From Nitrospirota bacterium (GTDB lineage: Bacteria; Nitrospirota; UBA9217), in NCBI GenBank assembly GCA_963751455.1, contig CAVVUN010000001.1, positions 448,001 through 512,000 of the forward strand: a stretch of 64,000 bases of DNA. Reading direction: 5' to 3'. The notes under the pieces were generated by a model. The model did no database searches, was not told the origin of the DNA, and saw nothing but the letters and a program-made list of their open reading frames with translations. Positions 10,501 to 57,640 of this stretch are shown in pieces (position 1 is the first letter of the stretch; every line of letters begins with the position of its first letter). The position numbers and the translations under genes were made by a program.

Positions 10501-13500
10501 CGGAATCCGCAGCCGACCAATTCATTCCGTCACTGGAAGAGATGACAGCGCCGTTAACACCCACGGATACGAATGTCCCATTGCCGAATGTGACATCTTT
10601 CAGGTTATTCGTGGTGGGTGATGTGGCCGAAGTCCATGTATTTCCGTCAACGGACGACAGTACCGCTCCTCCGCTGCCTACGGCGACAAACGTGTTATTT
10701 CCGTAGGTCATTCCCGCCAGATCACTCTTCGAACCCGTGGTTCGGTTGTTCCATGCGCTCCCATCGGCCGATGTGAGTATGACATTCGGCCAACCAGTCG
10801 CTATATAGAGGTTATTAGCGAAAGAGACGCTGCTGAGATTGTCGGTGATTCCGGAAGATTTCGGCGTCCAGGAAATGCCGTCGGTTGAAGACAGGATGGT
10901 CCCTGAATCGCCGACAGCCATGAACGTTCCGATTCCGTCGAACGCAACTCCATAGATCCAGTTCGCCTGGCCGGTCGAATGGGATGTCCAGATTAAACCG
11001 TCTGATGAGGTGAGAACAGTGCCGTTATAAACAGTGACAACGAACGTATTATTGCCGAAAGCCGCATCTGTCAGCCAGTTCGTGGTGCCCGAAGTACTGT
11101 TTGTCCACGTGACGCCGTTGTCTGAAGACGTAAGGATTGTGCCGTTATAGCCGGAAGCAACAAAAATACCGTTGCCGAAAGCCACACCGAAGATATCATT
11201 CGCGGTATTTGATGTCCTGGCTGTCCATGTTACTCCGTCCGGAGATGTAACGATCGCGCCGGCTGCTCCAACCGCGACAAACTGGTTATTCTGGAAAATG
11301 ACTTTAATAAGCTCACTGGCGGTTCCCGATGTCCTGTTTGTCCATGTGATGCCGTCGGACGATGTCAGGATCGTGCCGGCGCCTCCGACAGCGACAAAGG
11401 TCCCATTGCCGAAAGCAACGCTGTCCAATATATAACTCGTTCCCGACGTCCGCATGGTCCAGGAGATGCCGTCCGCAGAGGTAAGGAGTGTTCCGTTGTA
11501 CCCTGTTAGTACGAACGTGCCGTTTCCGTACGCAGCCTCCTGCAGCTGGTTTCCCTGCGGGAGCGGATTTCTCCACTCCCATATATCGAGAGAGCCGCCC
11601 TCCGACGGTTCGGGCGGGGTCGTGTCGAGCGTGATAGTGGCCGTTACGGCGCTCGACAGACTTCCTGCGCCGTCCTGGAACTTGACAAAAACCGTCTTCG
11701 GCCCGTCACCTGAAGAAAGGTTCCAGGTCGTGGTCGTTGCATACGAGGCCAGACCCGTATAGTTCACGTTGTCATTGCTGATCTGCATCTGGCTGCAGCT
11801 GCTGGCCGCATCAAAGCAGGTGAACGCAAGAGTAACCGCCGGATCGTTCGTGAAGGAAGCGCTGCCGTTGATCGAAAGCGTGCCCGTCGGAGGCGTGATG
11901 TCGACGATACTTAAAACGAGGGATGGTGAATAGGACACGTTCCAGGACAACCCACCGCCGGGCGACGGAATGTTCAAAGTTCCGGTCTGTGAGGCGTACG
12001 TCATGACTGTATACGTCTGGCCGGTTGCAAGTGTATGTCCACCAACCAGGTTCACGATCATGGACCCGCCAAGGGATGCATTCCCGCTGACCGCAAGCTG
12101 GTCGTACTGGCCTGTTCCTGTGCCGCCCAGATCGATATTGATGACGCTCGATGCTGTCTGGGGAAGTGGTCCGGTTACATTCAGTGTGCCCGAAGTTCCT
12201 GGCGCTGCAGGATCGATCGCGCCGTTGTTCGTGAACGTCCCGGACGACACATCAAGCGTCCCAGAGCCCTGGATTAATCCTGTATTAGTCAATGCGCTGA
12301 TCGGCGACACAGTCCCGGTCTGGACATCGAGAATACCGCTGTTGTTAAACGGTATACCGAGCGCGGTCGCGCCTGTCGTGGTGGTCTTCCTGAACGTACC
12401 TGAATTGTTGAATATGCCGCCGGTACTGTTGGCCATATTCACGTCACTCTGGACCTCGAAGATCGATCCCGTCTGGTTATTGATGGTCCCGTTGTTGTAG
12501 AAGTACAGAGGTCCGGAGCCTCCCCAGGTCGCTGTTCCGGCTATATTTAACACCCTTGTATCAAGGTTCTTACTCAATGTACCGCTTATCGAGAGCGTCC
12601 CTCCGGATGGAATAACCGTGCTTCCCGTGCCGGTCATGTATCCGTCGTTCCATGTTGCCGTCTGTGCGGTCACAATACCGCTGCCTGAGAGGTATCCGTC
12701 CGATATGTTCAAACCCGTAGTCGTTGAGTTCGCATTATCGAAGTTAACCGTGGCGCTGCCCGATAAGGTCGTTATGCCGGTTACGTCGTATGTTACCCCT
12801 GTGCCGATCGTCGTAGTGCCGCCGTTGTTAAAGTTGATCCCTCCGGTCCCGCTAAGCGAAGCAGGAGAATTGATGGTGTATGTTGCGCTGCTGAACACAA
12901 GTGTGCCGGGCTTCGTTGCCGTAAATAATCCCGTGCCGGTTCCTCCGCTGTTCAAAGACACAGAACCGCTCTGTATGTCCATAGCACCGTTGTTGTTGAA
13001 CGGTATACCGACCGTTGTCGCACCCGTTGCTGCGGTGGTCTTCCTGAACGTACCGGAATTGTTGAATAGGCCGCCGAAACTGTTGGACATGTTCGTATCA
13101 TTCTGGACATCGAAGAAGGCTCCCGTCTGGTTGTTGATGGTCCCGTTGTTGTAGAAGTACATATACCCGGTGCCTGTCCAGGTGGCTGTGCCGGCTATAT
13201 TCAACAGCCTTGCATCAAGGTGCTTACTCGGTGTCCCGCTTATAGAGAGCGTCCCACCGGACGTAATAACCGTGCTTCCTGTACCGCTCATGTATCCGCC
13301 GCTCCATGTTGCTGTCTGTACGGTCACGATACCACTGCCCGAAAGATACCCCGCCAAAACCACCAACCCGACCGTACTCGCGTTCGTGTTAAAGGCCGCT
13401 GCGGCCGCGCCCCCGGTCACGCTCGTCACACCCGCTACATTGTACGTCACCCCGGATGCGATCGTCGCGGTACCGCCGCTGAAGTCGATCGTGCCTGTCC

Positions 13501-16500
13501 CTCCCATATTTCCCGCATCAATGCTGTGCGTACCACCGCTGAACCGCAGTGTTCCGGGAGATGTTGCAATAAACGAACCTGTCGTATGCGTACCGCCGTT
13601 GTTCAATGAGACGATGCCGCTCTGTATATCCACGCTCCCGCTGTTATTGAACGGGATAGCGATGGTAGTCGTACCCGTTGCAACCGTCTTCCGGAACGTG
13701 CCGTAGTTAGTGAAAATTCCTCCCGATGAGTTCTGCATGGGTACATTGCTCTGGATATCGAAGATCCCGCTCACCAGGTTATTGAATTTCCCGTTGTTGT
13801 AGAAGTACATCCAACCCGTGCCGCTCCACGTTGCCGTACCGTTGTTGTTCAAGGTCCGGGTGTCCACGTTCACGCTGCTCGCACCGCTGATCGAAAGGGT
13901 GCCGTTCACGTCCGTGCTGCCCGAGCCGCCCATGGTACCACCCGTCCAGGTCCCGGTTGTGGCCGAAACAACGCCGCTCCCCGTCAGCGTACCGCTCGAA
14001 ACCAGCAGGCCGACCGTAATGGCATTCGTGTTAAAGGCTGCGGCAGTCGCACCGGTCACGCTCGTCACACCCGTTACAAAGTACGTAACCCCCGATGCGA
14101 TCGTCGTGGTCCCGCCGCTGAAGTCGATCGTGCCCGTCCCGCCCACATTTCCCGCGGCGATGCTGTGCGTACCGCCGCCGAACCGCAGGGTTCCGGGAGA
14201 TGTCGCACTAAGCGAACCCGTCGTATGCGTGCCGCCGTTGTTCAACGATACGGTGCCGCTCTGGATATCAACGCTGCCGCTGTTATTGAACGGGATGGAA
14301 ATCGTGCTCGTAGCTGTCGCAACTGTTTTCCGGAACGTACCATAGTTGTTGAACACACCACCTGATGAATTTTGCATAGTCTGGTCGTTCCGGATATCGA
14401 AAAGTCCGCCCGCCTGGTTATTGATAGCGGCATTGTTGTAGAAGTACATCCAGTTCGTGTTGGTCAACGCTGTCGTGCCGCTGTTGTTCAGAGTTCGGGT
14501 ATCAAGATACACACCGCTCGAGCCGCTGATGGTAAGCGTAGCTCCCGACAGAATATTCGTGCTCCCCGTGCCGCTCATCGTGCCGCTCGTCCACGTCAGC
14601 GAAGTCCCGGATACAGTTAACGCGCTGCTTCCTCCCAGGGTACCGCCGGACAACGTCAGTGGTACAGTAGTCGTTATCGGAGTGTTGATATTGACCGTCC
14701 CGCTGTTGATCGCCATCGCTCCGGTCCCGCCGAGCGATGCCCCGGCATCAAAATTATGAGTACCGCTTACAAATTGAAGAACACCCGGAGATGTCGCTGT
14801 AAACGGGCCCGTATACGTGCCGCTGGTCAACGATACGATGCCGCTCTGTATTTCGACGTTCCCGCTGTTAATGAACGGAATCGCGATCGTGCTCGTAGCT
14901 GTTGCAACTGTTTTCCGGAATGTGCCGTAGTTGTTGAAAACACCACCCGATGAGTTCTGCATGGTCTGGTCGTTTCGGATATCGAAAAGTGCACCCACCT
15001 GGTTATTGATAGCGGCATTGTTATAGAAGTACACCCAGTTCGCGTTGGTCAACGCAGTTGTACCGCTGTTATTCAAGGTTCGGGCGTCCAGGCTGACGCT
15101 GCTGGTGCCGCTGATCGTAAGCGTAGCTCCCGACAGAATATTCGTGCTCCCCGTGCCGCTCATCGTGCCGCTTGTCCATGTCAGCGAACTTCCCGAGACG
15201 CTTAACGTGCCGCTTCCTCCCAAGGTGCCGCCAGACAGCGTCAGTGGCACAGTACTCGTTATCGCAGTGTTTATATTGACTGTGCCGGTGCTGATCACGA
15301 TCGCTCCCGTTCCTCCGAGCGAAACTCCTGTATTAAAATTATGCGTGCCGCCGCCAAACCGCAGTGTTCCGGGCGATGTCGCAGTAAACGGGCTCGTATC
15401 CGTGCCGCCATTGCTCAACGATACGGTGCCGCTCCGGATATCCACGCTACCGCTGTTATTGAATGGAATAGAGATCGTGCTCGTAGCCGTTGCAACCGTC
15501 TTCCGGAACGTCCCATAGTTATTGAACACACCACCCGATGAATTCTGCATGGTCTGATCGTTTTGGATATCGAAAAGTCCGCCCGTGTTGTTATTGATAG
15601 TGGCATTGTTGTAGAAGGACATCCAGTTCGTGTTGGCCCACACAACCGTACCGCTGTTGTTCAAAGTCCGGGTGTCCAGGCTAACGCTGCTCGTGCCGCT
15701 GATTGTTAGCGTCGCGCCCGAAACAATATTCGTGCTCCCTGTGCCGCTCATTGAACCGCCCGACCAATTGTATGCCCCGTTCACCGTGAGGCTGCCGGGC
15801 CCTGTTATTGTCCCACTGGAATGATTCAGGATACCGTTTGTATTAATCGAGCTGGCATTGTTCAACGTCAGCGTGTTCCCGGATATCGAGAGTGTTTGTT
15901 TAGTAGAGGATCCGCCGAGGGAGAGGCTCGCTACTGTCGCATTCGTATCAAGTGTGACTGTACAATTGATACAACCGTCTCCGATTACGACATCATTCAA
16001 GTCAGTTGGAACCCCAGCCGGACTCCAGTTACCCGCTGTGTTCCAGAGACCACCTGCTGAAGAAATCCATGTCTTAACCGATGAAGAAACATTCAGCGTT
16101 AACCCCGAGCTATTATACGCAGGGCTCCACATTTTACCGCTAAGCGCTGGGTAATCGTAAGTCGAGTATTGCCCGATGGCTGCTATGACCATAGAAGAAT
16201 CAAGCACGAAGAATGTATTACCAATGGCCGGCACAAAGCCGCTCAGAAGAAGCACCCTCAGAGTGCCGCCGAGAGTATAAGTATCGGTCTGAGTTCCAAA
16301 TACTATCTGGTCATAATCGACACCAGCGGTCGCCTGCCCCTGCATTTCTATCTCCGTTATGCCGGCAGCGGCGTGCGTAAACGGCCCTGAGAATGTTAAT
16401 TTCCCGATTGCACCAACGCCTCCCGGCCGGATGGTTCCCTCATTGGTAATCAGCACTCCAGTAGACAGGGTACCGTTTCCTTCTATTGACCCTGTGGATG

Positions 16501-17107
16501 TATTCGTGAGCGATCCGCTAGTGTTGAGCGTCGGAGGTGAAGCACCCCCGACGAGCGTGATCAAGCCGCTGTTCGTATGAACGCCCCCGGCCTTATTGAA
16601 AGACATGCCCTTATTAATCGTGATCGTTCCCTGGTTAACAACGTTACCATTAATGTAGTTCTCGGTAATAGATGTACCGGAATCGGTAATCATGCCGATA
16701 GCCGTGTTGGTGATGGTGCCGCTGCTTATAAGAGTTGCACCTCCTGTTGAGACAGAGTTGATCTGAATTGTTCCGTTATTGGTAACTCCATTTACGGCTG
16801 TCAGGCTGATTGCCGACCCGACATTGGCGATTTTCAAGGTCGAGCCGCTTCCGATAAAGAGCGAATTTACGGTTACACTCAAATTTGATGCATCCACCAA
16901 GCCGGACGACGCAGGGATATCGACGTCATCCGTCGAGGTAGGAACGGCATTCGTGGACCAGTTAGCTGCATCCGTCCATGATGTCGTTGTCGCGCCGCCG
17001 TCCCAAGTGACGGCTGCGCTGGCAACTGAAGAGTAAAATGTGAGAAGCAGCAGACTAGACCATAACAGCAAGCGAATATATCGTGGATTATTGGAAGGCA
17101 TAGTCAC
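7547..17107 (-). CDS. Giant (3186 aa) secreted surface protein: beta-helix-like repeats, Asp-box/BNR propeller repeats, Ig-like and divergent InlB-B repeats, C-terminal dockerin-like domain
   Basis: Signal peptide; W..A.NWS..VP...D.V motifs; six NxGTFRK repeats; many TSxDGxTW repeats; ITATFSEDMD Ig-like domain; YGxDQTFTITP..GYHI; DLDKNNMVDGKD Ca-binding loop. Confidence 0.85.
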   Translation of the reverse strand: MTMPSNNPRYIRLLLWSSLLLLTFYSSVASAAVTWDGGATTTSWTDAANWSTNAVPTSTDDVDIPASSGLVDASNLSVTVNSLFIGSGSTLKIANVGSAISLTAVNGVTNNGTIQINSVSTGGATLISSGTITNTAIGMITDSGTSITENYINGNVVNQGTITINKGMSFNKAGGVHTNSGLITLVGGASPPTLNTSGSLTNTSTGSIEGNGTLSTGVLITNEGTIRPGGVGAIGKLTFSGPFTHAAAGITEIEMQGQATAGVDYDQIVFGTQTDTYTLGGTLRVLLLSGFVPAIGNTFFVLDSSMVIAAIGQYSTYDYPALSGKMWSPAYNSSGLTLNVSSSVKTWISSAGGLWNTAGNWSPAGVPTDLNDVVIGDGCINCTVTLDTNATVASLSLGGSSTKQTLSISGNTLTLNNASSINTNGILNHSSGTITGPGSLTVNGAYNWSGGSMSGTGSTNIVSGATLTISGTSSVSLDTRTLNNSGTVVWANTNWMSFYNNATINNNTGGLFDIQNDQTMQNSSGGVFNNYGTFRKTVATATSTISIPFNNSGSVDIRSGTVSLSNGGTDTSPFTATSPGTLRFGGGTHNFNTGVSLGGTGAIVISTGTVNINTAITSTVPLTLSGGTLGGSGTLSVSGSSLTWTSGTMSGTGSTNILSGATLTISGTSSVSLDARTLNNSGTTALTNANWVYFYNNAAINNQVGALFDIRNDQTMQNSSGGVFNNYGTFRKTVATATSTIAIPFINSGNVEIQSGIVSLTSGTYTGPFTATSPGVLQFVSGTHNFDAGASLGGTGAMAINSGTVNINTPITTTVPLTLSGGTLGGSSALTVSGTSLTWTSGTMSGTGSTNILSGATLTISGSSGVYLDTRTLNNSGTTALTNTNWMYFYNNAAINNQAGGLFDIRNDQTMQNSSGGVFNNYGTFRKTVATATSTISIPFNNSGSVDIQSGTVSLNNGGTHTTGSLSATSPGTLRFGGGTHSIAAGNVGGTGTIDFSGGTTTIASGVTYFVTGVTSVTGATAAAFNTNAITVGLLVSSGTLTGSGVVSATTGTWTGGTMGGSGSTDVNGTLSISGASSVNVDTRTLNNNGTATWSGTGWMYFYNNGKFNNLVSGIFDIQSNVPMQNSSGGIFTNYGTFRKTVATGTTTIAIPFNNSGSVDIQSGIVSLNNGGTHTTGSFIATSPGTLRFSGGTHSIDAGNMGGTGTIDFSGGTATIASGVTYNVAGVTSVTGGAAAAAFNTNASTVGLVVLAGYLSGSGIVTVQTATWSGGYMSGTGSTVITSGGTLSISGTPSKHLDARLLNIAGTATWTGTGYMYFYNNGTINNQTGAFFDVQNDTNMSNSFGGLFNNSGTFRKTTAATGATTVGIPFNNNGAMDIQSGSVSLNSGGTGTGLFTATKPGTLVFSSATYTINSPASLSGTGGINFNNGGTTTIGTGVTYDVTGITTLSGSATVNFDNANSTTTGLNISDGYLSGSGIVTAQTATWNDGYMTGTGSTVIPSGGTLSISGTLSKNLDTRVLNIAGTATWGGSGPLYFYNNGTINNQTGSIFEVQSDVNMANSTGGIFNNSGTFRKTTTTGATALGIPFNNSGILDVQTGTVSPISALTNTGLIQGSGTLDVSSGTFTNNGAIDPAAPGTSGTLNVTGPLPQTASSVINIDLGGTGTGQYDQLAVSGNASLGGSMIVNLVGGHTLATGQTYTVMTYASQTGTLNIPSPGGGLSWNVSYSPSLVLSIVDITPPTGTLSINGSASFTNDPAVTLAFTCFDAASSCSQMQISNDNVNYTGLASYATTTTWNLSSGDGPKTVFVKFQDGAGSLSSAVTATITLDTTPPEPSEGGSLDIWEWRNPLPQGNQLQEAAYGNGTFVLTGYNGTLLTSADGISWTMRTSGTSYILDSVAFGNGTFVAVGGAGTILTSSDGITWTNRTSGTASELIKVIFQNNQFVAVGAAGAIVTSPDGVTWTARTSNTANDIFGVAFGNGIFVASGYNGTILTSSDNGVTWTNSTSGTTNWLTDAAFGNNTFVVTVYNGTVLTSSDGLIWTSHSTGQANWIYGVAFDGIGTFMAVGDSGTILSSTDGISWTPKSSGITDNLSSVSFANNLYIATGWPNVILTSADGSAWNNRTTGSKSDLAGMTYGNNTFVAVGSGGAVLSSVDGNTWTSATSPTTNNLKDVTFGNGTFVSVGVNGAVISSSDGMNWSAADSGTTIYDPYGVAFGNNMFVAVGGGIEGAMGYLTLTSPDGINWAMIDHYSDYMLYDVAFGNGLFVAVGYQGTIMTSSNGTTWTLGPSGVTTDLYGITFANNMFISVGASGTILTSADGVDWSPASSPTSSDLRGIAFGNNTFLAAGSSTILSSTDGTNWNERTMDVTTNGLNAVAVGGDTALVAGNYGTILGASMAPGGTVSIFVNGGTGRTASPAVSLTLTCTDIGSGCAEMQFSDDGISYTTPETRAPSRSWNLPSGDGLKTVYAKFKDNAGNWSAAYSDTVLLDTVPPLVSSVTPTAGAANIPVDTAITATFSEDMDQTTIASSFIVTGVTGTVGYDGLSKTATFTPSSSLATGTTYTATLSTGAQDLAGNGLAADYSWNFTTVTSATITATTGAGGSISPTGAVSVNYGADQAFTITPGAGYHITGILIDGVSQNIVSSYTFTTVTANHTIDASFGIDTFLITANIGTGGSINPSPSITVNYGSDQTFTITPNTGYHIIDVLIDGISQGIISAYTFTSVTASHTIDASFAINTYTITASATTGGTVSPSGPVSVNHGSSQSFTITPLAGYYVADVLADGVSVGAVLSYSFSSVAANHTISAVFAATTAPPSFSSTSPAADSVISNARVGYTLDKDVASGTVTFTWTGGVTDLVSARTYTFTETSAGSHTADTGLTLVNGAIYTVTFQATDSQGNTASVPNANITYDETIPSVAITGPVSNSRVNTARISYTLSETVTGGTITIIQTGGTTDALSPYTYPLSSSELTAGGHTIDTGKALVNGAIYTFEIGNMVDTAGNTSATALSTNIEFDNQSVVITVTSPSTKAIISSATVTYSLSESAQSGTITFTRTAGSQDTASPQVYTMQTADLSQGTHSLSTGITLVDGAFYTVSFTATDLVANPATSVSNAKVNYATGYDPVHPWNVDNSGALNSVDEADVQKVFHAFGSRPGDTYWNPVCDLDKNNMVDGKDMMILQQHYGETW
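12360..15760 (-). repeat. Six intragenic tandem repeats of about 585-655 bp
   Basis: The FNNxGTFRK-coding segment recurs near 12407, 13061, 13711, 14351, 14933 and 15521; some blocks are nucleotide-identical over about 50 bp. Confidence 0.85.
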
Positions 17108-17365: not shown

Positions 17366-17406
17366 TGGTGCACTGGGGTGACTCGAAACCCGAACGCGGT
17401 TTAGGA
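17366..17406 (-). repeat. Degenerate tRNA-Arg(CCT) 3'-half copy (att site)
   Basis: TGGTGCACTGGGGTGACTCGAAACCCGAACGCGGTTTAGGA aligns to 24300-24343 with a few substitutions and gaps. Confidence 0.85.
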
Positions 17407-17471
17407 CATGTCGGGTCTGCAAATCGTTAGCAGTTATTATTCGGAATACTTCACCTCCCATGATTAGTTGA

Positions 17472-19045: not shown

Positions 19046-19374
19046 GGTGGTTCCTCCTTGGTGTTAATTTACCGGTTTTGAAGAAGAGGCGCTGCCCGTT
19101 TTTCCGGTCGTTGCGTTTTCGCTAATCGGGATCGGATTACTCAGCGCTTACCGAACTACAGTGAGTCTTTTAAGTATTTGCAGTATAAAGAACGGGCAGC
19201 TAAGACGCCGCTTTACGGGAACCATCATTCGTCCGACGGACAAGCGGTTCTTAAAATTCGAGCATTTTTTGGAAGATCAGTAAGAAGGGTTTTAGGGTTA
19301 AAAACGAATGTAAATCAGCAGACCTTTAAAAAGGCCGATACAGTCCTGTATAGGCCTTAAACCATTATTTATTA

Positions 19375-19420
19375 TGGTGCCCCTGGGGTGACTCGAATAC
19401 CCGGCACGCGGTTTAGGAAA
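19375..19420 (-). repeat. tRNA-Arg(CCT) 3'-half copy (att site)
   Basis: 45/46 match to 24300-24345. Confidence 0.92.
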
Positions 19421-19525
19421 TGTTGGGCAACACCATCTTTGTTTGATGATCAATTACATAAGATAATCATGGGGATTCTCGACCGACTCGTTAATGCGGT
19501 GGAAGACTTCGATTGCACAAACAAA

Positions 19526-22090: not shown

Positions 22091-22218
22091 GGAGAATTTT
22101 CGGGAGTTGGCGATGATGGGGAAATAACAAATAACAAGAATCGTCAAGAATTGACAATAATCGCTAGCAATTTTATAAAAAAAGGCCGATACAATTCGGC
22201 CTAATCTATTGATTATAT

Positions 22219-22264
22219 TGGTGCCCCTGGGGTGACTCGAACACCCGGCACGCGGTTTAGGAAA
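22219..22264 (-). repeat. tRNA-Arg(CCT) 3'-half copy (att site)
   Basis: Identical 46 bp to 24300-24345. Confidence 0.95.
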
Positions 22265-22396
22265 TGTCGGGCAATCACGCGATTGCTTGATTATCAATTA
22301 CATAACATAACCATATCTGCACGAAAACCAGCATTCTTGATGTAATCGGGTTAGAAAAAGGTTAGGATTTCCACTTCAACTAGCAGACAAAATACT

Positions 22397-24134: not shown

Positions 24135-24299
24135 CCCGCATACCATGTGTCTAATTATGTTAATAATTCAATGGGTTCAGTCAATCAATATCAATTTCGA
24201 TCAATTAAGGTTAGAAAAAGGTTAGAAGTAAAAAAAAATAAAAAAAGGCCAATCGAGTCTTGTATTGGCCTTAACATCCCAGTTTTATTAAGTTTTATT

Positions 24300-24376
24300 T
24301 GGTGCCCCTGGGGTGACTCGAACACCCGGCACGCGGTTTAGGAAACCGCTGCTCTATCCACCTGAGCTACAGGGGC
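24300..24376 (-). tRNA. tRNA-Arg(CCT)
   Basis: GCCCCTG acceptor stem, GCGGT-TTCCTAA-ACCGC anticodon arm, TTCGAG T-loop, CCA. Confidence 0.95.
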
Positions 24377-24385
24377 GCTTTAAAA

Positions 24386-24454
24386 AAATTCAAAATTCAA
24401 AAAGGAACATTCAAAATTAAACGACTTGAATCCTGAATATTGAATGTTGAATTT
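24386..24454. repeat. Inverted heptamer-repeat hairpin (AAATTCA / TGAATDT)
   Basis: aaattcaaaattca...cattcaaaatt versus tgaatcc tgaatat tgaatgt tgaattt. Confidence 0.7.
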
Positions 24455-27643: not shown

Positions 27644-27698
27644 CCGCCTGCACCCAGCGGTTATGAGTGCTACGCCGCGAATGCAGGGTGCGGGTTGC
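27644..27698. repeat. Hairpin repeat element, copy 1 (CCTGCACCCAGCGGTTA...TGCAGGGTG)
   Basis: Aligns with the copies at 35660 and 40617. Confidence 0.8.
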
Positions 27699-29745: not shown

Positions 29746-31143
29746 TCATTCCGTATCGAACAGCCCCAATTGCAGCATTTTTTCGCCCGGGAACGGCACC
29801 GGGTATTCGCCGTCGAAGCACGCGGCGCAGTAGTTTATCGGATGGGCCACCACTTTCTTCAGTCCCTCAATGCTAATGTAGCCGAGAGTATCCGCCGTTA
29901 TATACTTCCTGATTTCTTCTATACTGTGAGTAGAAGCAATAAGCTCCTGACGAGTCGGCATGTCAATGCCGTAGAAACAGGGATAGGACGTGGGCGGTGA
30001 ACTTATCCTCAAATGCACTTCAGCGGCCCCCGCATCCCTGATCATCTTGATGATCTTCTTGCTCGTCGTGCCGCGCACAATCGAATCATCCACCACGATG
30101 ACCCTTTTTCCTTTCAAAGCGTCTTTTACGGGATTCAGTTTGATCTTGACGCCGAAATGCCTGATCGCCTGCTGCGGCTCGATAAAGGTGCGGCCGACAT
30201 AATGGTTTCTGATGAGCCCCGTATCGAACGGGATTCCCGCCTCTTCGGCGTAACCCAATGCTGCGGGAACGCCCGAATCCGGTACGGGTATGACAACATC
30301 AGCCGGAACGCCTGCCTCCCGGGCGAGTTGTCTCCCGAATTCTTTCCGTATCGAGTACACGTTCTGGCCGAAGACCATGCTGTCCGGCCTCGCAAAATAA
30401 ATAAATTCAAAAATGCAATGGGATGGCTCGGCATGTTGGAACGGAAACGAGGAATGTATGCCATTCCTGTTGATTATGACCATTTCACCGGGGGCAATAT
30501 CCCGGATATACGTTGCTTCGATCAAATCGAAAGCGCACGTCTCCGAGGCGACGACATACGCACCGTCGAGTTCCGCGAGTGAGAGCGGCCTGAACCCGTG
30601 CGTGTCGCGAACCGCGATCAATTCGTCTTCCGTCATAATAAGAAGGCTGTAGGACCCCTGGACGTGGCTGAGAGCGTCGACAATACGTTCATGCAGGGTG
30701 GCCATGCGCGACTGCGCAATGAGGTGGACGATGACTTCCGTATCCGTGGTCGTCACGAATATAGAACCGTAGGCTTCCAACTCGTCTTTCAGTATCCCTG
30801 CATTAACCAGATTGCCGTTATGCGCGATTGCGAGACCGCCAAGGGCAAAGTTTACGAGAATGGGCTGGATGTTGAATGCGAAGCTGCCGCCCGCCGTCGA
30901 ATAGCGGTTGTGGCCTATGGCCATCTGTCCGGGGAGTCTCTTGATCCGGTCCGAACTGAAAATGTCGGCCACGAGGCCCATTGCCTTCTCGCCGAAAAGC
31001 TGTTTCCCGTCGGATGATACGATACCCGCCGATTCCTGGCCCCGATGCTGCAAGGCATAGAGCCCCAGGTACGTAAGGTTTGCGGCGTCCGGGTGGCCGT
31101 AGATCCCGAACACTCCGCATTCTTCGTGAAGCTTGTCGTACAT
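29746..31143 (-). CDS. purF: Amidophosphoribosyltransferase
   Basis: [36 protein letters not shown]. Confidence 0.97.
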
Positions 31144-31158
31144 AATACATCCTTAATC

Positions 31159-31226
31159 GATACAGGATGCAGGACGCAAGACGCACGACAAAGATGTCGT
31201 AATCATGCATCGTGAATCATGCATCA
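31159..31226. repeat. Inverted heptamer-repeat hairpin (GATGCAG / ATCATGC)
   Basis: gatacag gatgcag gacgcaa gacgcac versus aatcatg catcgtg aatcatg catca. Confidence 0.75.
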
Positions 31227-32525
31227 CGTTTTTTTCTTAAACACCCTCTTGAAGATAAAATCGACTTTCTTCAAGGTATGTTTCACGTCGAAACAGTTCT
31301 CTATCTCCCTGATGTTGAGATGTTTCCGGATGTCAGCGTCTTTCTTCAGGCGCTCCTTGAAATCCCCGCCCGTCTTCCAGACTTCCATGGCATTCCGTTG
31401 GACATAGGAATAGGCTGTCTCGCGGGTGATTCCCTTTGCCACGAGCGCCAGCATAACGGTCTCTGAGTGGAACAAACCCTTCGAGATCGACATGTTCCGT
31501 TCCATATTCGCGGGATATACGAAGAGCCTGTCTACCAGGCTGTTGAAACGCGCCAGCATGTAATCGATCAGTATCGTGCTGTCGGGAATGATGATTCGCT
31601 CCACGGAGGAGTGGCTTATGTCCCTTTCATGCCAGAGGGCGACATTTTCCATCGCAGCCAGCGCGTTTGCCCGTACGATCCTCGCAAGGCCGGACAGGTT
31701 CTCGGCTGAAATCGGGTTCCTCTTGTGCGGCATGGCGGAAGAGCCCTTTTGCCCCTCCGAGAAATACTCCTCCGCCTCGAGCACTTCCGTCCTTTGAAGG
31801 TGACGAAGCTCTACCGAGAACTTCTCAATAGACGATGCGACGAGCGCAAGCGAGGTCAAAAACTCGGCGTGCCGGTCACGCTGCACCACCTGGGTTGCAA
31901 CCGGCTCCGGGACAAGACCCAGTTTCCGGCACACATAGGATTCGACAAAAGGATCAATATTTGCAAACGTCCCGACCGCGCCCGAAACCTTTCCGACGCT
32001 GATCACGTCGCGTGCGCGCGTCATACGCTCGAGCGTCCTGCCCATTTCCTCGTACCAGAGCGCCATCTTGAGCCCGAAGGTGACCGGCTCCGCATGCACG
32101 CCGTGCGAGCGCCCGATCATGACGGTATTTTTATGCTTGAGGGCTTTCTTTTTGAGCGTCTTGAGGAGCGTTTTGACATCATCGATAATGATGTCCGACG
32201 CCTTTCGCATGAGCGATGCAAGCGAGGTATCAAGAACGTCCGATGAGGTAAGCCCGAGATGTATATAGCGGGATTCAGGGCCGACGTTTTCCCCGACTGC
32301 GGTAAGAAAAGCGATGACATCGTGTTTCACGGTCTTTTCGAGTTCATCGACACGCCGGACGCTGAAGTCCGCATTTTTCTTGATCGCCGCGAGCGCCTTT
32401 GCAGGGATCAATCCTAGTTTCGCGTTCGCCTCGCAGGCCAGGATTTCTACCTCAAGCCATGCGCGATATCTGTTCTCCGGTTCCCAGAGGCCGGCCATTT
32501 GCGGCCTGCTGTAACGAGGGATCAT
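31224..32525 (-). CDS. purB: Adenylosuccinate lyase
   Basis: MIPRYS, HDVIAF, GRSHG, GSSAMPHKRNP, HERDISHSS. Confidence 0.97.
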   Translation of the reverse strand: MIPRYSRPQMAGLWEPENRYRAWLEVEILACEANAKLGLIPAKALAAIKKNADFSVRRVDELEKTVKHDVIAFLTAVGENVGPESRYIHLGLTSSDVLDTSLASLMRKASDIIIDDVKTLLKTLKKKALKHKNTVMIGRSHGVHAEPVTFGLKMALWYEEMGRTLERMTRARDVISVGKVSGAVGTFANIDPFVESYVCRKLGLVPEPVATQVVQRDRHAEFLTSLALVASSIEKFSVELRHLQRTEVLEAEEYFSEGQKGSSAMPHKRNPISAENLSGLARIVRANALAAMENVALWHERDISHSSVERIIIPDSTILIDYMLARFNSLVDRLFVYPANMERNMSISKGLFHSETVMLALVAKGITRETAYSYVQRNAMEVWKTGGDFKERLKKDADIRKHLNIREIENCFDVKHTLKKVDFIFKRVFKKKT

Positions 32526-32608
32526 ATGTTCAGGCCTCCTGCTCTCAATGAAGCTTATTGCGCCCGTATCCGAACATTAATTTTCCTGCCGGCAAAAAAA
32601 GAATCATT

Positions 32609-33100
32609 CTACGTTTGAATCAATTTCAATATCTTTTCATACATTGCCGCATCGGGAGCCAGCAAGCTGATATCTATCCCGCGCCCCCCCGCGCCTTCGC
32701 CAAGGCCTTTGCGTAAAGCGGACACCGCGGTCTCGTACGGCATATCCGGCGAAGGCAAATATTCCAGGGCCGCGTCCGCAACTCCGGCGGATACGGCGGT
32801 TCCAACTGCAGTCCTGGCCGCAGCGGCCACGGTCGAGGGAGAAAGCGCTTCACGCGGTCCCATTCCGACCATGAATATTTTTTGCGCCGGAACCTTTCCG
32901 CCGGAGGTCACCAACGCCACATCACCCGTCGCTCCTGTCAATTTATTTTCCAGGATCAGGCGGGAAAGCGCGCCGCAAAGCAGCCAGTCAAGTTCGCCCG
33001 CAAGTCCTTTGAGCGGTCTGACATTTTCAAAAAATCCGACAATCAATGCCTCGGTATTGATTTTTTTTATGTCCTGCAGAACCACCCTCAAACCGGGCAT
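32609..33100 (-). CDS. Stand-alone peptidase M17 N-terminal-domain protein
   Basis: FFE..RPLKG.AG.LDW.L.G.LSRLI and K....GMG; no catalytic domain; start uncertain. Confidence 0.65.
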   Translation of the reverse strand: MPGLRVVLQDIKKINTEALIVGFFENVRPLKGLAGELDWLLCGALSRLILENKLTGATGDVALVTSGGKVPAQKIFMVGMGPREALSPSTVAAAARTAVGTAVSAGVADAALEYLPSPDMPYETAVSALRKGLGEGAGGRGIDISLLAPDAAMYEKILKLIQT

Positions 33101-33120
33101 CCCTTCAGCGGCTTTTTGCC

Positions 33121-33211
33121 GCAAATGCAAATTGAAAGTTCCAAATTGGAAATTGGAAATTTGTTGTTATGGCGGAGGCCATATATTTATTTGAATTTTG
33201 CACTTTGCAAT
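33121..33211. repeat. Inverted heptamer-repeat hairpin (TGGAAAT family)
   Basis: tgcaaat tgaaagt tccaaat tggaaat tggaaat versus tttgaat tttgcac tttgcaa. Confidence 0.7.
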
Positions 33212-33252
33212 AGGGGGTTTCCCCCCTTTCAGGCTCTCCAGGTTTCCGGAGG

Positions 33253-33684
33253 TTAATCTTCTATCTTTCCCTCTTCAAGCTTGCCGGTGACCCGGGCAAC
33301 TTTATCGAGGATGCCGTTCACAAAGGCGCCGGACTCCTCGGTCCCGTACTTCTTGGCTATTTCTATGGCCTCATTGATGGTGACGCTCGTAGGAATATCG
33401 ATCCGATAAAAAATTTCGTAAACCGCCATTCTCAGCACATTCCGATCTACGACGGCCATGCGGTCGAGGCTCCAGTTTTTGGCATTTGAATGGATCAGAT
33501 CGTTTATCTTGGCGAGGTACTTATACGTCCCCTTGACGATTTCCTCGGCAAAAGCCTTGACTTCATCGTCCGGTTCCTGTTCAGCCCAGAAATGCTTCAG
33601 GACGGTAGCCGAAGGTTTTTCTTTTCTGATATCGAGTTGGAAGAGTATCTGAAGCGCATACTCCCTGGCCTTGCGTCGCTTCAT
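33253..33684 (-). CDS. nusB: Transcription antitermination factor NusB
   Basis: RRKAREYALQILF, DRNVLR, INEAIEIAKKYG..FVNGILD. Start at MKRRK. Confidence 0.96.
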   Translation of the reverse strand: MKRRKAREYALQILFQLDIRKEKPSATVLKHFWAEQEPDDEVKAFAEEIVKGTYKYLAKINDLIHSNAKNWSLDRMAVVDRNVLRMAVYEIFYRIDIPTSVTINEAIEIAKKYGTEESGAFVNGILDKVARVTGKLEEGKIED

Positions 33685-33869
33685 AAAGAGGACCAGACCC
33701 CAAATGACAAGCACCAAGAAAAAATAAGCATCAAATGGTAAGCACTAAATCCGAAATAAGCGCCAATAATCAAGCGCCCGGTTCCAAACGTTCTGAAATC
33801 TGGACATTCGAGTTGGGACTTTATTTGGAATTTGGGATTTTGGAGATTTGTTCTATGGAATTTTTTCAT
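33681..33869 (-). other. Heptamer-repeat hairpin carrying a 62-aa bridging ORF
   Basis: Degenerate CAAAT/ATTTG heptamers; the ORF overlaps the ribH stop and the nusB start, both by ATGA. Confidence 0.6.
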
Positions 33870-34336
33870 TTGCCCAGTTGTTTCATCAGATTTGCCATTT
33901 CGATTGCCGAAACCGCCGCGTCCCAGCCTTTGTTTCCGCTCTTTGTGCCGGCGCGCTCGATCGCCTGCTCGATGGTATCGGTCGTCAGCACGCCGAATAT
34001 GACGGGCAAACCGGTTTCCAGTGAGACCGCTGCAACACCCTTGCTGACTTCAGCGCTTACATATTCAAAATGAGGAGTGGCTCCCCGGATCACTGCTCCA
34101 AGGCAGATGACGGCGTTGTACTTTTTTGAGAGGGCCATGGTCCTCGCCGCCAGCGGAACTTCGTAAGACCCAGGCACCTTGGCGATTTCTATGTCGCCGT
34201 CCGCTACGCCGTGCCGCTGCAATCCGTCGAGGCAGCCGTCCAGCAGCCTGCTCGTAATAAAATCATTAAACCGTGCGGCAACGATGCCGAACTTGAGTCC
34301 CTTCGCTGAAAGATCTCCCTCAATCATTTTAGGCAT
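33866..34336 (-). CDS. ribH: 6,7-dimethyl-8-ribityllumazine synthase
   Basis: [34 protein letters not shown]. Confidence 0.97.
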
Positions 34337-34353
34337 GCGGTTCCTCCGTAAAC

Positions 34354-34430
34354 ATTGGCATAGCGCATAGTGCATGGCGCATAGTTTAAAATTTTAACGC
34401 CTAGCACTATGCTCTTTGCGCTCTGCGCCT
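34354..34430. repeat. Inverted heptamer-repeat hairpin (TAGCGCA family)
   Basis: tagcgca tagtgca tggcgca tag versus cgcctag cactatg ctctttg cgctctg cgc. Confidence 0.75.
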
Positions 34431-34437
34431 CATTGCA

Positions 34438-35643
34438 TCAGACTTTCTCCAGCATATGTCCTAGTTTGTTCTTTTTGACCTTGAGATAATGGATGTTTTT
34501 CGAGTGAGGGTGCATCTCGATCGGCACGCGCGCAACCACGCTCAGTCCGTACCCTTCGAGGCCGATGATCTTCTTCGGGTTATTGGTCAGGAGCTTTATC
34601 TTCCGGACGCCGAGATCGCGAAGTATCTGTGCGCCAACTCCGTAGTCCCTCAGGTCCGCCTTGAACCCGAGCGCAAGATTCGCCTCTACCGTGTCCTTGC
34701 CGTTGTCCTGAAGTTCGTATGCCTTGAGCTTGCCTTCGAGACCGATGCCGCGCCCTTCCTGCCGCATATAGAGAATAACGCCTTTGCCTTCTTCCTCAAT
34801 TATTTTCATCGCGTTATGAAGCTGTTCGCCGCAATCGCAGCGAAGCGAACCGAACACGTCGCCGGTCAGGCACTCGGAATGCACCCGGACAAGCACGTCG
34901 TCTTCTGGCTTGATTTCTCCCTTGACGAGCGCTATGTGGTTCATCCTGTCGATTTCGTTGCTGTAGAGGATGGCCGTAAAGTCCGATCCGTGGCTGGTCG
35001 GCATTTTCGTGACCGCCACCCTGCGGACGAGCGATTCTTTTCTGATACGATACGCAATCAGGTCCTTGACGGTAATGATCTTGAGATCGAATTTTTTTGA
35101 GAACTCGATGAGCTGCGGAACCCGGGACATGGTCCCGTCGTCGTTCATGATTTCGCAGATGACACCGGCCGGATACAGTCCGGCAAGCCGCGCGAGATCG
35201 ACGGAACCCTCGGTCTGGCCTGCACGCTGCAGAACGCCTCCCGGACGCGCCTTGAGCGGGAACACATGGCCCGGCCGCGCCAGGTCCTCGGGTCCGGATT
35301 TGGCATGAATCGCGGTCTTGATCGTCGTTGCCCGGTCTGCCGCTGAAATGCCGGTGGTCACGCCTTTCTTTGCCTCAACCGAGATCGTAAACGCGGTCCC
35401 GAACGAGGACGTATTGTCCGTCGTCATCATGGGCAGCTGCAGGTGCTCCACGCGTTCCGGAGTAAGAGAAAGGCAAATAAGCCCGCGCCCGTGCTTGGCC
35501 ATGAAATTGATCGCTTCCGGCGTTACGGCCTCGGCCGCCATCGTCAGATCTCCCTCGTTTTCCCGGTCCTCGTCATCTACGAGGATCACCATCTTGCCCT
35601 TCCGGATATCTTCGATGGCTTCTTCGATCGTATTGAACTTCAT
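34438..35643 (-). CDS. ribBA: Bifunctional DHBP synthase / GTP cyclohydrolase II
   Basis: [47 protein letters not shown]. Confidence 0.97.
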
Positions 35644-35659
35644 AAAATCACCCCATTCT

Positions 35660-35756
35660 GGACCAAGGCAACCGCCTGCACCCAGCGGTTACGAGTGGTA
35701 TCGCGAGTGCAGGGTGTGTTGCCGTTATCAACGCCGACATGGTCGGCTCGCTCCAT
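35660..35756. repeat. Hairpin repeat element, copy 2
   Basis: Near-identical to 40617-40739 apart from a central indel. Confidence 0.88.
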
Positions 35757-37268: not shown

Positions 37269-37862
37269 CTACTTATCTTCTTTAAAGCACGGAATGCAAA
37301 CGACCGTTCCGTTTTTCTCGCGTCCGCGCGACTCCATAAGTTTCTCGCCGCAGGAAGCACAGCGGATCGAGCGCCGGATCTTGGCCTCTTGCGGAGGGGG
37401 CGCGTCTGTGCGTGAAATGGTCATAATCTCTTTTTCATCGGCGTTCAGTATCGCAGTCGCCTTTTCCATCATGTACGCCTGCTTATCGCGCGAAACGTCC
37501 TCTCCCGCGTCCTGCCGTTTTTTCAGCTCGGCAAACCTGCTGTCCGCTTCAAACCCCCGGTAGTCCTCGGAAATGCGCACTCCCCGTCCTGTTCGCCGAT
37601 TGAAGAACGAGTAGACGTGCTTTCCATAGTCCCGGAAAATGAAATTTCCCTTTCCGAACGTCGCTCCCGTTATAAATTGTATTGCATCGGCGGCGCAGGA
37701 GTCGTTCTCCACGACTGCCACAAGCTCCTCGTCATGCGGCCGCTCCGCCCCGAGCTCGCGGAGAGCCGCCTTTGCCACCCGATAGCCGAGGGAAAGACCC
37801 GGGCAGAGGTGGCCGTGGAACTGGATGGTCTCTCTTAAATCGGAGTCGTTGATGTTTGCCAT
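37269..37862 (-). CDS. FmdE-family protein with C-terminal zinc finger
   Basis: FHGHLCPG, ENDSC..DAIQ, GKGN, CASCGE..CIPC. Confidence 0.88.
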   Translation of the reverse strand: MANINDSDLRETIQFHGHLCPGLSLGYRVAKAALRELGAERPHDEELVAVVENDSCAADAIQFITGATFGKGNFIFRDYGKHVYSFFNRRTGRGVRISEDYRGFEADSRFAELKKRQDAGEDVSRDKQAYMMEKATAILNADEKEIMTISRTDAPPPQEAKIRRSIRCASCGEKLMESRGREKNGTVVCIPCFKEDK

Positions 37863-37878
37863 TAAATCTCCTTAATTA

Positions 37879-37996
37879 GCCATGGATAAACACGAATTAC
37901 ACGGATTAAACCGAATATTTCAATGTCGTATGTTTTAATAACGGCGAAAATAGACAAAGAAAAGCTTTTTCCGTGGCATCCGTGCAAATCCGTGGC
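37879..37996. repeat. 9-mer-repeat inverted element (CACGGAT family)
   Basis: gccatggataaacacgaattacacggatt versus tccgtggcatccgtgcaaatccgtggc. Confidence 0.75.
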
Positions 37997-38007
37997 AAAA
38001 TACCCGC

Positions 38008-39099
38008 TTATTTCCTCAGGACGAGCTTCGCCGCCAGGATCGCCTTTGCCCGCTTCAAGTGGCTTTTGACCGTGTCGCTGTCTTCTATGGCGAGATGGAT
38101 CTCCTTTGCCACTTCCTCTTCTCCGGCGTGACTCGCCTTGCCGGCCCACATCCGGTAGCTCTCAACGTGGCTGTCCTCATGTTCGATCCAGTGCTCAAGC
38201 ATGGTCTGCAGTTTCCGCAAATCTTCGATACCGTGGCCCGTATGGGCGTGGTCAGCGGGGTGCTTGTGATTTTCGTGCATGGAACCTCCATTTTCATGAT
38301 AGTGGCCGTAGTGCCCATGCCTGTGAACATGAGCGCTGTCTCCGTGGCGGTGCGCGTGCTCATGAATGAGATTGACCTTGAGCAGCAGTTCTTCATTCGA
38401 GATGATGTCGGAAAACCGTCCATCCGCAGCCACGGAATGGTCCTCGGATAAAACAACGGCCCGGTCCGCGATATCTCCGGCAATCGAAAGGTCATGGGTC
38501 GCCGAGATAATGGTTTTTCCCTGTCCGTGCAACTCCTCCAAAAGCTCGATCAGCCAGACCTGGGTCCGGGGATCCAGACCGTTTGTCGGTTCGTCAAGGA
38601 GCAGTACATCGGGATCGACGGCAAGACTTGACGCGATCGCGACTTTTTTTTTCTGCCCGTCGGACAGCGCATGCGGCGCGCGGTCGCGTATATCGACGAT
38701 CCGGAGCAACTCCAGCAATTTTTCCACAGTTGCCTGTATCCGGTCAGGGGGGTATCCCAACTGGAGCGGGCCGAAAGCGATATCGTCCCAGACTGTCGCG
38801 GAGAAAAGCTGAATATCGGGGTTCTGGAACACAAAGGCGACCCTTTTCCGGAAGTCAGCCGAAAAATTTCCGTCTTCCAGCGCATCCTCGGTCAGGGCTT
38901 TTCCGAAGGCGAGAATAGTTCCCGCTTTCGGAAATACGAGCCCGTCGAGCATGGTCAGCAGTGTGGATTTTCCCGTGCCGTTCGAACCGAGAATAACCGT
39001 CCGTTCGCCCGCCCCAAATTCAAGATTAACATCGCTCAGGACGGGCCCTGAATCCGGATAGGAATAAAAAAGGTTTTTCACGCTGAAAACGGCCGTCAT
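38008..39099 (-). CDS. cbiO: ECF Ni/Co transporter ATPase (CbiO/NikO) with His-rich C-terminal fusion
   Basis: GSNGTGKST, FQNPD, LSDGQKK, LLLDEP, THD; poly-His linker plus an extra helical domain. Confidence 0.88.
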   Translation of the reverse strand: MTAVFSVKNLFYSYPDSGPVLSDVNLEFGAGERTVILGSNGTGKSTLLTMLDGLVFPKAGTILAFGKALTEDALEDGNFSADFRKRVAFVFQNPDIQLFSATVWDDIAFGPLQLGYPPDRIQATVEKLLELLRIVDIRDRAPHALSDGQKKKVAIASSLAVDPDVLLLDEPTNGLDPRTQVWLIELLEELHGQGKTIISATHDLSIAGDIADRAVVLSEDHSVAADGRFSDIISNEELLLKVNLIHEHAHRHGDSAHVHRHGHYGHYHENGGSMHENHKHPADHAHTGHGIEDLRKLQTMLEHWIEHEDSHVESYRMWAGKASHAGEEEVAKEIHLAIEDSDTVKSHLKRAKAILAAKLVLRK

Positions 39100-40277: not shown

Positions 40278-40613
40278 TCATTTACGGTCTTTACGGCCTA
40301 GCACCTTCGCGAGCAAGTAGGCCAGACCCGCAGCGGCCGCAATGCCGAGAAGTGCGGTAAAAACGTAACCGAAGCTTCTGTGGACAAGGCCCTGCCCCTG
40401 CCCCGGAACTTCATAGCCCTGAAGAGGTGACTTCCATGCATCGGCAAGCTTTCTCATGCCCTCCGGAATGTATCCCGTTATCTTTTTTAACTCCTCGGCG
40501 CTCCACTCACCCCATGCTCCGCCTGCATTAAACAGCGCGGGCAGAATCAGGCCGACTGGCGAAAGAATCGCCAGGATAAGGATCCCTATCCAAAGCTTTT
40601 TCGTTATCTTCAT
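40278..40613 (-). CDS. CbiN/NikN-like (PDGLE-type) membrane component
   Basis: L..LSP.GL, AWGEW..EE, GY.P.G, W.SPL..Y and two TM helices. Confidence 0.8.
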   Translation of the reverse strand: MKITKKLWIGILILAILSPVGLILPALFNAGGAWGEWSAEELKKITGYIPEGMRKLADAWKSPLQGYEVPGQGQGLVHRSFGYVFTALLGIAAAAGLAYLLAKVLGRKDRK

Positions 40614-40616
40614 TTT

Positions 40617-40739
40617 GGACCAAGGCAACCGCCTGCACCCAGCGGTTACGAGTGGCATCGCGAGTGCAGGGTGTGTTGCCGTCCCATTGACCATCTGAAA
40701 TTCATAAACTAAAACGCCGACACGGTCGGCTCGCTCCAT
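40617..40739. repeat. Hairpin repeat element, copy 3
   Basis: GGACCAAGGCAACCGCCTGCACCCAGCGG...GTTGCCGT and AACGCCGACA.GGTCGGCTCGCTCCATA are shared with 35660-35757. Confidence 0.88.
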
Positions 40740-56198: not shown

Positions 56199-56420
56199 TC
56201 AGGCAGGGGCTTTGGTCAGCTTCTTCTGATGTTTTATGACGGTAGACAATGAGCGGAGAGCTTGATTGACGGAATCGTGATCAGGGAAATATTTTGCGAC
56301 ATCGGGTTCAATTACAACCACATTTGTTCCGGCAGCGTATCGCTTCGTATATTTCCCGCGAACTCCCTTGCTGAAGTCATACTCTTCAAGCATGTCTGGA
56401 TCTTTTTGCATTTTCTTCAT
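56199..56420 (-). CDS. BrnA-like antitoxin
   Basis: DMLEEYDFSKGVRGKY..V.IEPDV...F.....VN.ALR. Confidence 0.75.
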   Translation of the reverse strand: MKKMQKDPDMLEEYDFSKGVRGKYTKRYAAGTNVVVIEPDVAKYFPDHDSVNQALRSLSTVIKHQKKLTKAPA

Positions 56421-56682
56421 AGGTTTCTCTTTCATGTTTTGTCGCCTTTCTCGCGCTGATCAGACGTATTTTATCACCCCGCTCCGTATGCGCTACGACC
56501 AGTAGCCGATCCTGATGCGAGTTGCCGATGAGTATCAGGCGGTCTTCATCGGCGGAATGAAGCGGGTCGAAGATCGTCAATGACATAGTATCTTTGAAAG
56601 CTGTGCTGGCCTCATCAAAGGTAATGCCATGAACTCGAACATTTCTTTTTGCCTTTATCGGGTCCCATTCAAAGGAAAGCAT
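56386..56682 (-). CDS. BrnT-family ribonuclease toxin
   Basis: FEWD..K...N...HGI.F.EA, HS..EDR, IRLISARKA..ER..YE. Confidence 0.9.
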   Translation of the reverse strand: MLSFEWDPIKAKRNVRVHGITFDEASTAFKDTMSLTIFDPLHSADEDRLILIGNSHQDRLLVVAHTERGDKIRLISARKATKHERETYEENAKRSRHA

Positions 56683-57640
56683 CGTCCACCGTATCTGGTA
56701 TTCGACTTACTGTAAATATTTTAACATATAAGATGAGGCGATAGGAAGTAATAATTTGATTAGGGTTGTAAAGGGAGGCGCGGCTGTTGGTCGCTCCGGT
56801 CGACGAGAGAACCTTTAGGGTCAAGTCTTTTTCGTTGCATTTTCGTATTCACGAAGCCAGCGGCTGATCGTCGAGTAGTGGACGGCCACATGGCGGGCTA
56901 GTTCACTCTGATGATAACCGTATTTTTCCACGGCCTCGGACACCTTTTTCATCAGTTTGCGATGATTGTTCATGACTGAGTCGGGCAGCAAAACGGCAAG
57001 CGACGGTCGAGTCGAATATCGCTGACTCCGGGGAATTTCGGGAATGTCCTTGTGTTTTTTGAGATAATCTGTAAGCTTATCTACGAAATCGTCCTCACCT
57101 AAAAGCGCTTGGCCTCGCACTTCCGTCCAGATCGTCTTCTTTCCGATACCCCACTGAACGAACTGGCGATACTCTTTTTCCGCTTTATCTCGTTTTCTGC
57201 TGAATTGACCGAGCACCCAGTCCTTTGTGAGGCAGGGATGAGGTTCTGCCTTACCCGCCGTCGCAAGGTAACTGGACCACTTCCAGTCTTCCGGCGCTTC
57301 GACCATCCTTGCTCTTACCGAATTTAGAACCACATATCGGCAGACCTCAAGGAGATGACTGTCTTTCTGGATCAAGATAGCCTTATACCGGCCCTGGAAT
57401 AAATGCCCGGACCTTCCGTGATACTTGTTGAAAAGTTGCGTATACACTCCGTTCAATTGGCGCATACCGAGAGAAAGATTGCCTTCCGGGGTCTCGATAA
57501 GAAGGTGGTAATGATTTGTCATGAGGCAATACGCATGACAGATCCAATTGTACCGCTTGTTGACGTGCTGGACCGTGTTCAGGAAGTTTTCGCGGTCCTG
57601 GTCGTTTTTGAATACGGGCTTCTTCTCATTGCCACGAGAA

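Follow-up and report, generated by a model that had tools for sequence, protein, structure and literature searches.

A putative ribosome relay between ribH and nusB in a Nitrospirota family and its repeat-containing form in one genome

The DNA analysed here is a stretch of 64,000 nucleotides (the window) from a Nitrospirota bacterium, positions 448,001 to 512,000 of contig CAVVUN010000001.1 (assembly GCA_963751455.1). Its minus strand carries an operon in the order ribE-ribBA-ribH-nusB-(M17 N-domain gene)-purB-purF, assigned by profile matches apart from two genes that we take, from their N-termini, to be ribE and ribBA. Between the lumazine synthase gene ribH (33866..34336, minus strand; TIGR00114, 186 bits) and nusB (33253..33684, minus strand; TIGR01951, 154 bits) lies a 62-codon open reading frame (ORF) at 33681..33869 of the same strand, which sits where the family has a micro-ORF of 8-15 codons. 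From the sequence comparisons it seems, on balance, probable that the ancestral micro-ORF relays ribosomes to nusB, a gene with a weak Shine-Dalgarno (SD) site, and that in this genome a 7-mer repeat has replaced the body of the micro-ORF while the frame has stayed open, probably through host selection.

In such a relay, ribosomes ending ribH would reinitiate at an ATG lying between -4 and +19 nt from its stop, translate 8-15 codons (62 in this genome), terminate at the UGA of the AUGA overlap and then reinitiate on nusB. According to the excerpted text of PMC10666635, coupling by termination-reinitiation falls off over ~20-38 nt. Because reinitiation collapses over this range, the 34-45-nt gap found at this junction would break coupling to a gene with a weak SD, and a process limited in this way by distance would need a bridge. 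With the micro-ORF in place, ribosomes would cross the gap in two hops, the first of -4 to +19 nt and the second of -4. The geometry is that of the ATGA and TGATG overlaps described in the same excerpts, although the cases given there join two real genes directly, whereas at ribH-nusB a peptide-free frame is interposed.

The relay frame across the family

The junction was compared in 60 family genomes and in 114 loci from a metagenome scan which, after exclusion of 4 without the ribH end and 37 duplicates, gave 73 new distinct junctions. The pooled set numbers 132; a genome with an atypical nusB start (G074; the present genome is G000, and G- and L-numbers denote the other genomes and loci compared) was left out of the third-position, pooled first-ATG and expansion analyses. 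The relatives are kin, and counts across genomes are not independent. In the 60 genomes the gap is mostly 34-45 nt long and repeat-free, with lengths falling 27/21/12 into the three classes modulo 3. An ATG open to a TGA that overlaps the nusB start is present in 46 of these genomes, against 10.0 expected from shuffled sequence, and in 56 of the 73 metagenome junctions, against 10.6. The three frames of the 60-genome set hold 6, 61 and 15 ATGs and 27, 8 and 47 stops, the second being the relay frame, and those of the metagenome junctions 2, 69 and 11 ATGs. When no frame was selected beforehand, 104 of the 132 junctions had their first ATG past the ribH stop in the relay frame, 7 had it in another frame and 21 had no ATG; counted by genus, it was in the relay frame in 12 of 14 (binomial p=8e-5).

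The start of the micro-ORF turns over across the family, its distance to nusB peaking at 23, 26, 29, 32, 35, 38 and 41 nt. At the other end, nusB begins ATGA in 59/59. An ATG open in the frame that ends on nusB is found in 101 of the 132 junctions, 94 of these lying no more than 19 nt from the ribH stop, and the ATG of the micro-ORF has a median SD of only -2.8. Differences between micro-ORFs are not biased to third positions, unlike those in the nusB control, and therefore it is the frame that is kept and not a peptide. A preliminary description of this DNA, which drew attention to three ORFs bridging repeat-containing junctions, had suggested such ORFs as a possible source of de novo peptides; no evidence for this was found, the orthologous micro-ORFs being without peptide-level constraint. 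Selection on the frame at ribH-nusB is thus well supported family-wide, and a functional role for it as a host relay is likely.

The strength of the nusB start and the behaviour of the gap are consistent with this role. A computed SD of dG -7 or below precedes nusB in only 4 of the 60 family genomes, as against 59/59 for ribH, although a weak site is in itself no proof that nusB depends on a relay. Gaps above 60 nt occur in 5 of 58 junctions at ribH-nusB but in 40 of 58 at ribBA-ribH and 21 of 42 at purB-purF (Fisher 1e-11 and 5e-6, among kin that are not independent), and the directly coupled nusB-M17 junction is expanded similarly rarely (9/56). Outside the family, ribH and nusB lie 15 nt or less apart in 56 of 88 pairs (100 loci, 12 without the pair). 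Where outgroup gaps are long, an ORF runs through in 7 of 13, against 2.8 expected, including the 7-mer-repeat junctions L119, L120 and L125, several of the loci being kin.

Several observations weigh against a relay. Among the 132 junctions, 23 have no open ATG, GTG or TTG relay and a further 8 have only GTG or TTG, so that several lineages do without the relay or have something in its place, though some cases may be assembly errors. Expanded family junctions are crossed by a through-relay in only 3 of 15 (2.6 expected); four of the 15 retain only a distal micro-ORF, and in a clade with gaps of 73-89 nt neither form is seen in 4 of 5 sequences. Nor did five other candidate junctions of this genome, compared in up to 30 loci each, have comparable conservation: near-stop relays upstream of genes that we presume from their sequence to be rsmB, topA, hslU, argJ and acpS number 1/5, 2/23, 1/30, 2/30 and 5/28, compared with 40/58 at ribH-nusB. 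In the present genome the relay ATG is made of the last RibH codon and the TGA and may not be homologous to the ancestral ATG, and nusB has a weak GGGGU site whose dG of -6.4 is above the family median of -4.05 in strength and could permit independent initiation.

Two junctions in the family deserve separate mention. In one lineage (L263, L216, L245, L299, L272 and L209) nusB is preceded by a hairpin of 73-94 nt, lacks an SD and in most cases has no relay. At the M17-purB junction (32526-32608 in the window), ATGs across the family mildly favour the frame that ends at the purB start (37, against 14 and 24), and 23/48 end at that start; purB has an SD in 53/54. This is possibly a weaker or lineage-limited relay.

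The 62-codon ORF and the repeat beneath it

The sequence confirms that the ORF at 33681-33869 encodes 62 amino acids and overlaps both neighbours by ATGA, its ATG with the TGA of ribH (-4) and its TGA with the ATG of nusB. It is the sole double ATGA overlap among the three ORFs of the preliminary description, and shuffling of the interior gives P(strict) = 0.038. Its product has no Pfam or NCBIfam match, and the 62-residue sequence is confined to this genome among the 132 junctions, no homologue search of protein databases having been made. The closest relatives of the adjacent NusB among titled matches are from Nitrospirota, at 81-85% identity.

Degenerate inverted repeats of 7-10-mers occupy many junctions of the window, and the one at ribH-nusB is an element of 7-mer, CAAAT/TTTGG type (33697..33865, minus strand, ends approximate; periodicity score 11.6, period 7) with related copies elsewhere in the genome at 68-74% identity. 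Alignment with 12 copies of the same type places it from just past the ribH stop to ~12 nt ahead of nusB. The insert as a whole folds no better than shuffled sequence (z = +1.37), and a core of ~80 nt (~33749-33828) pairs. Only one frame of the insert is open, and this is the relay frame; in the 12 same-type hairpins elsewhere 0/36 frames are open. No family micro-ORF sequence could be recognised in the junction of this genome and, because the repeat fills nearly the whole of it, the ancestral body would be gone, presumably overwritten by the repeat while the frame stayed open. A relay built from the repeat in this genome is moderately supported, and selection on the 62-codon form itself is plausible from the shuffling (P about 0.04). 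That form is not demonstrably selected, because the expanded junctions of the family show no excess of through-relays (3/15 against 2.6). An origin of the overlaps in an ancestral ATGA overlap that was duplicated as a target site was ruled out for the family, whose repeat-free members have a 34-45-nt gap.

The 62-codon frame might instead be the lucky survivor of an insertion into a functional micro-ORF, with nusB now initiating by itself from GGGGU. The absence of a through-relay excess in the family fits this, as do the roughly six independent expansions, which amount to several tries at an event of 4-6%, the SD of nusB in this genome and the loss of any recognisable ancestral sequence. On the other hand, both ends of the ORF are exact -4 overlaps, no frame is open in the same-type hairpins (0/36), and through-frames recur in the outgroup 7-mer-repeat junctions L119, L120 and L125. 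Chance survival is considered unlikely, if the best placed of the alternatives.

An alternative that we regard as improbable is that the micro-ORF is translated but receives no ribosomes from ribH, either initiating independently or acting as a regulatory upstream ORF (uORF) that tunes nusB or covers the RNA against Rho. The micro-ORF does persist in G009, L203, G031 and G065 despite an insertion that places the ribH stop more than 100 nt away; in L203 it has an SD-like site (dG -7.2), and AAGGA precedes it in one genus (g10). Against this stand the weak SD typical of its ATG, the proximity of 94 of the 101 open ATGs to the ribH stop and the lack of peptide constraint. Descent of a single chance ATG, or of a remnant orphaned from the end of a once longer RibH, now without function, would suit the commonest gaps (41 and 44 nt), which place the micro-ORF in the ribH frame, and the scatter of losses over the tree, but is hardly credible given that ATGs are found at no fewer than seven distances, each of them in the same frame, and given a depletion of stops in the relay frame only (8, against 27 and 47) of a sequence that otherwise drifts freely.

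To return to the relay, a broader proposal is advanced more tentatively, and we would not yet favour it over its denial: that a housekeeping operon keeps family-wide a dedicated, peptide-free relay, a heritable part maintained through nothing but its start, frame and stop, which ties NusB synthesis to RibH, filters the mobile repeats able to persist at the junction and, once its body is overwritten, can be rebuilt out of the repeat (with 62 codons here and 25-37 in other Nitrospirota). Were it true, short operon spacers may be hidden, selected coding relays, and gaps of 30-45 nt before weak-SD genes would be reconciled with the short range of termination-reinitiation. The more than 130 natural variants, with the relay intact, lost, displaced or replaced by a repeat, form a series for studying the rules of reinitiation and the filtering of repeat insertions by the host.

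Repeats and bridging ORFs elsewhere

The preliminary description had also proposed that relay ORFs might be a harm-avoidance trait of the repeat element. Genes of the genome were called with our own hexamer-based caller (5,083 genes), and start positions are therefore uncertain; the junctions taken were co-directional and 40-330 nt long, and some of the relays in plain junctions are real small genes missed by the length filter. In 306 junctions with periodic repeats, strict double overlaps number 2 (0.9-1.1 expected), those with a looser 3' end 4 (2.1-3.1 expected) and loose relays 16, against 7.7 from full shuffling or 11.9 from shuffling of the interior (p=0.14). A broader repeat class has 9/586 relays, against 3.1 with mononucleotide shuffling (P=0.005) or 6.0 with a frameshift control (P=0.16). 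The same frameshift control gives 8/303 against 3.9 (P=0.047) for periodic junctions and 25/1045 against 17.3 (P=0.048) for plain ones. At least 97% of repeat junctions have no strict relay. Family-wide, 3 of 141 periodic copies at 23 orthologous junctions are crossed, against 4.3 expected, with 0/24 at ribBA-ribH.

Across these four nulls, enrichment of relay ORFs in repeat junctions is therefore absent or weak, and any excess is small and also present in junctions without repeats. That the repeats carry relay ORFs as a built-in protection is largely refuted here and seems very improbable: the mild excesses that would speak for it shrink under the better controls, similar ones are seen without repeats, and neither the family-wide crossings nor the closed frames of same-type copies point to such a trait, which is not supported. 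The repeats usually lie just past the upstream stop and ahead of an intact downstream SD (58/58 at ribBA-ribH), which corrects the idea that hairpins avoid harm through ORFs; mostly they are placed between a stop codon and a ribosome-binding site that is left intact. The 7-mer hairpin at ribBA-ribH in the window (34337..34437, minus strand), which has no relay and leaves ribH its GGAGG, serves as an internal control. At ribBA-ribH, ribE-ribBA, hslV-hslU and other junctions, differing 7-10-mer hairpin types are found by lineage at the same place, past the stop and before the SD, which suggests that insertion at fixed sites has recurred independently, or that the repeats turn over there.

The other two ORFs of the preliminary description fared less well than that at ribH-nusB. 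Between purB (31224..32525, minus strand; TIGR00928) and purF (29746..31143, minus strand; TIGR01134), a 23-codon ORF (31153..31224, minus strand) over a 7-mer, GCATGAT-type hairpin has the sequence and the TGATG start described, but does not bridge to purF: it shares the purF frame, ends 9 nt upstream of that gene without overlap, and has P = 0.46 under interior shuffling by the loose criterion. The SD-like TAAGGA before purF (31150-31155) is shared with the relatives G015 and G063, whose hairpin has no through-ORF. Among the family junctions listed, 10/33 have purB-purF gaps of 5-7 nt. A 95-codon ORF (37862..38149, minus strand) over a 9/10-mer, CACGGAT-type hairpin (37879-37999) ends TAATG, as described, on the start of an FmdE-family gene (37269..37862, minus strand; PF02663), which has its own SD (dG -8.2). 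It is not a relay from stop to start, since its GTG start lies 141 nt inside the upstream gene for a CbiO/ECF-type (energy-coupling factor) ATP-binding cassette (ABC) ATPase (38008..39099, minus strand; matches to TIGR01166 and TIGR04521, both below cut-off); beyond the stop of that gene its frame has no canonical start before a TTG at +20. The cbiO-FmdE junctions of the family have near-stop relays in 0/24 and an SD in 23/25. Both inserts are real hairpins (z -3.5 for purB-purF and -3.6 for FmdE), and both ORFs are likely to be chance frames. The host selection that had been offered as the other explanation is thus favoured at ribH-nusB, where the relay frame is kept family-wide in a repeat-free junction, and at neither of these two.

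At ribE-ribBA a 38-codon ORF (35640..35756, minus strand), with its ATG at +6 and its end at ATGA, runs over a multicopy palindromic repeat with related copies at 40611-40682 and 27644-27672. The SD of ribBA is strong, and the ORF is conserved in 0/25 relatives. A conserved relay was rejected here and at purB-purF (6/28 against 4.0 expected) and cbiO-FmdE alike.

Related systems and other features of the window

The gene iraD is reportedly a case of a coupling uORF. Such uORFs deliver ribosomes to the downstream gene and, in the excerpted text of PMC12548453, resemble the ORF at ribH-nusB in being short, with a stop overlapping the downstream start at -4 and a role in ribosome delivery rather than as a peptide. 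The micro-ORF at ribH-nusB differs in lying within an operon, apparently fed in two hops by the stop of the upstream gene, and in having a frame conserved over 19 genera with turnover of the start codon, and it is known from sequence alone. Mycobacterial interspersed repetitive units (MIRUs), for which avoidance of harm through a built-in ORF has been described (Supply et al. 1997, as cited in the excerpts of PMC12548453), likewise place at an operon junction a repeat with an ORF running over it that is coupled at -4 to the gene downstream; a MIRU brings this ORF with it, and start codons are where it inserts. By comparison with that account, the 7-10-mer hairpins are interrupted by stops in every frame and ~2% are crossed (0/36; 3/141), copies sit after the stop and before the SD, the repeat-free ribH-nusB junction is a gap of 34-45 nt and not an overlap, and the relay there would predate the repeat. 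Neither of the two MIRU features examined, an open frame in most copies and an insertion at the start codon that creates the -4 coupling, is seen here. The enterobacterial repeats RU-1/2/3 are also intergenic repeats read as ORFs, proposed in the excerpted text of PMC2759123 as sources of new peptides; unlike in that proposal, there is no sign that the 62-residue product is conserved or of importance. The degenerate 7-10-mer arrays that lie between genes in this window have a counterpart in the intergenic TAACTGA heptamer arrays found near start codons in the excerpts of PMC4679880. A literature search covering freely available papers, apart from their supplements, found no published account of the ribH-nusB micro-ORF.

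Among the proteins of this genome there are 9 matches to TIGR02436 (four-helix-bundle) and 10 to TIGR04256 (GxxExxY), families whose genes are flanked by such arrays. Several of these genes are flanked by inverted arrays, including the CACGGAT type (10 flanks read); none of the 10 genes inspected had the CAAAT type of ribH-nusB around it. Upstream of one GxxExxY gene (G000:C15:1252745-1252937), a 59-codon ORF over a 9-mer repeat arm ends TGATG on the gene start.

A long intergenic sequence, near-identical in ~54 gaps of this genome, is probably an insertion-sequence end or a MITE. Within the window, a 3,184-residue protein (7547-17101, minus strand) with internal repeats of ~117 nt and ~600 nt and a Big_5 domain is probably a surface protein. 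Repeated fragments at 19358-19470, 22202-22314, 24283-24395 and 17389-17415 resemble a tRNA gene near 24300, as expected of integration-site duplications. Two Y1_Tnp (IS200-like) matches at 56821-58138 (minus strand) lie within a pair of 37-nt inverted repeats of 97% identity (56806-56842 and 58336-58372) and are a possible mobiliser of the palindromic repeats. A BrnT-family toxin gene is found at 56386-56682.

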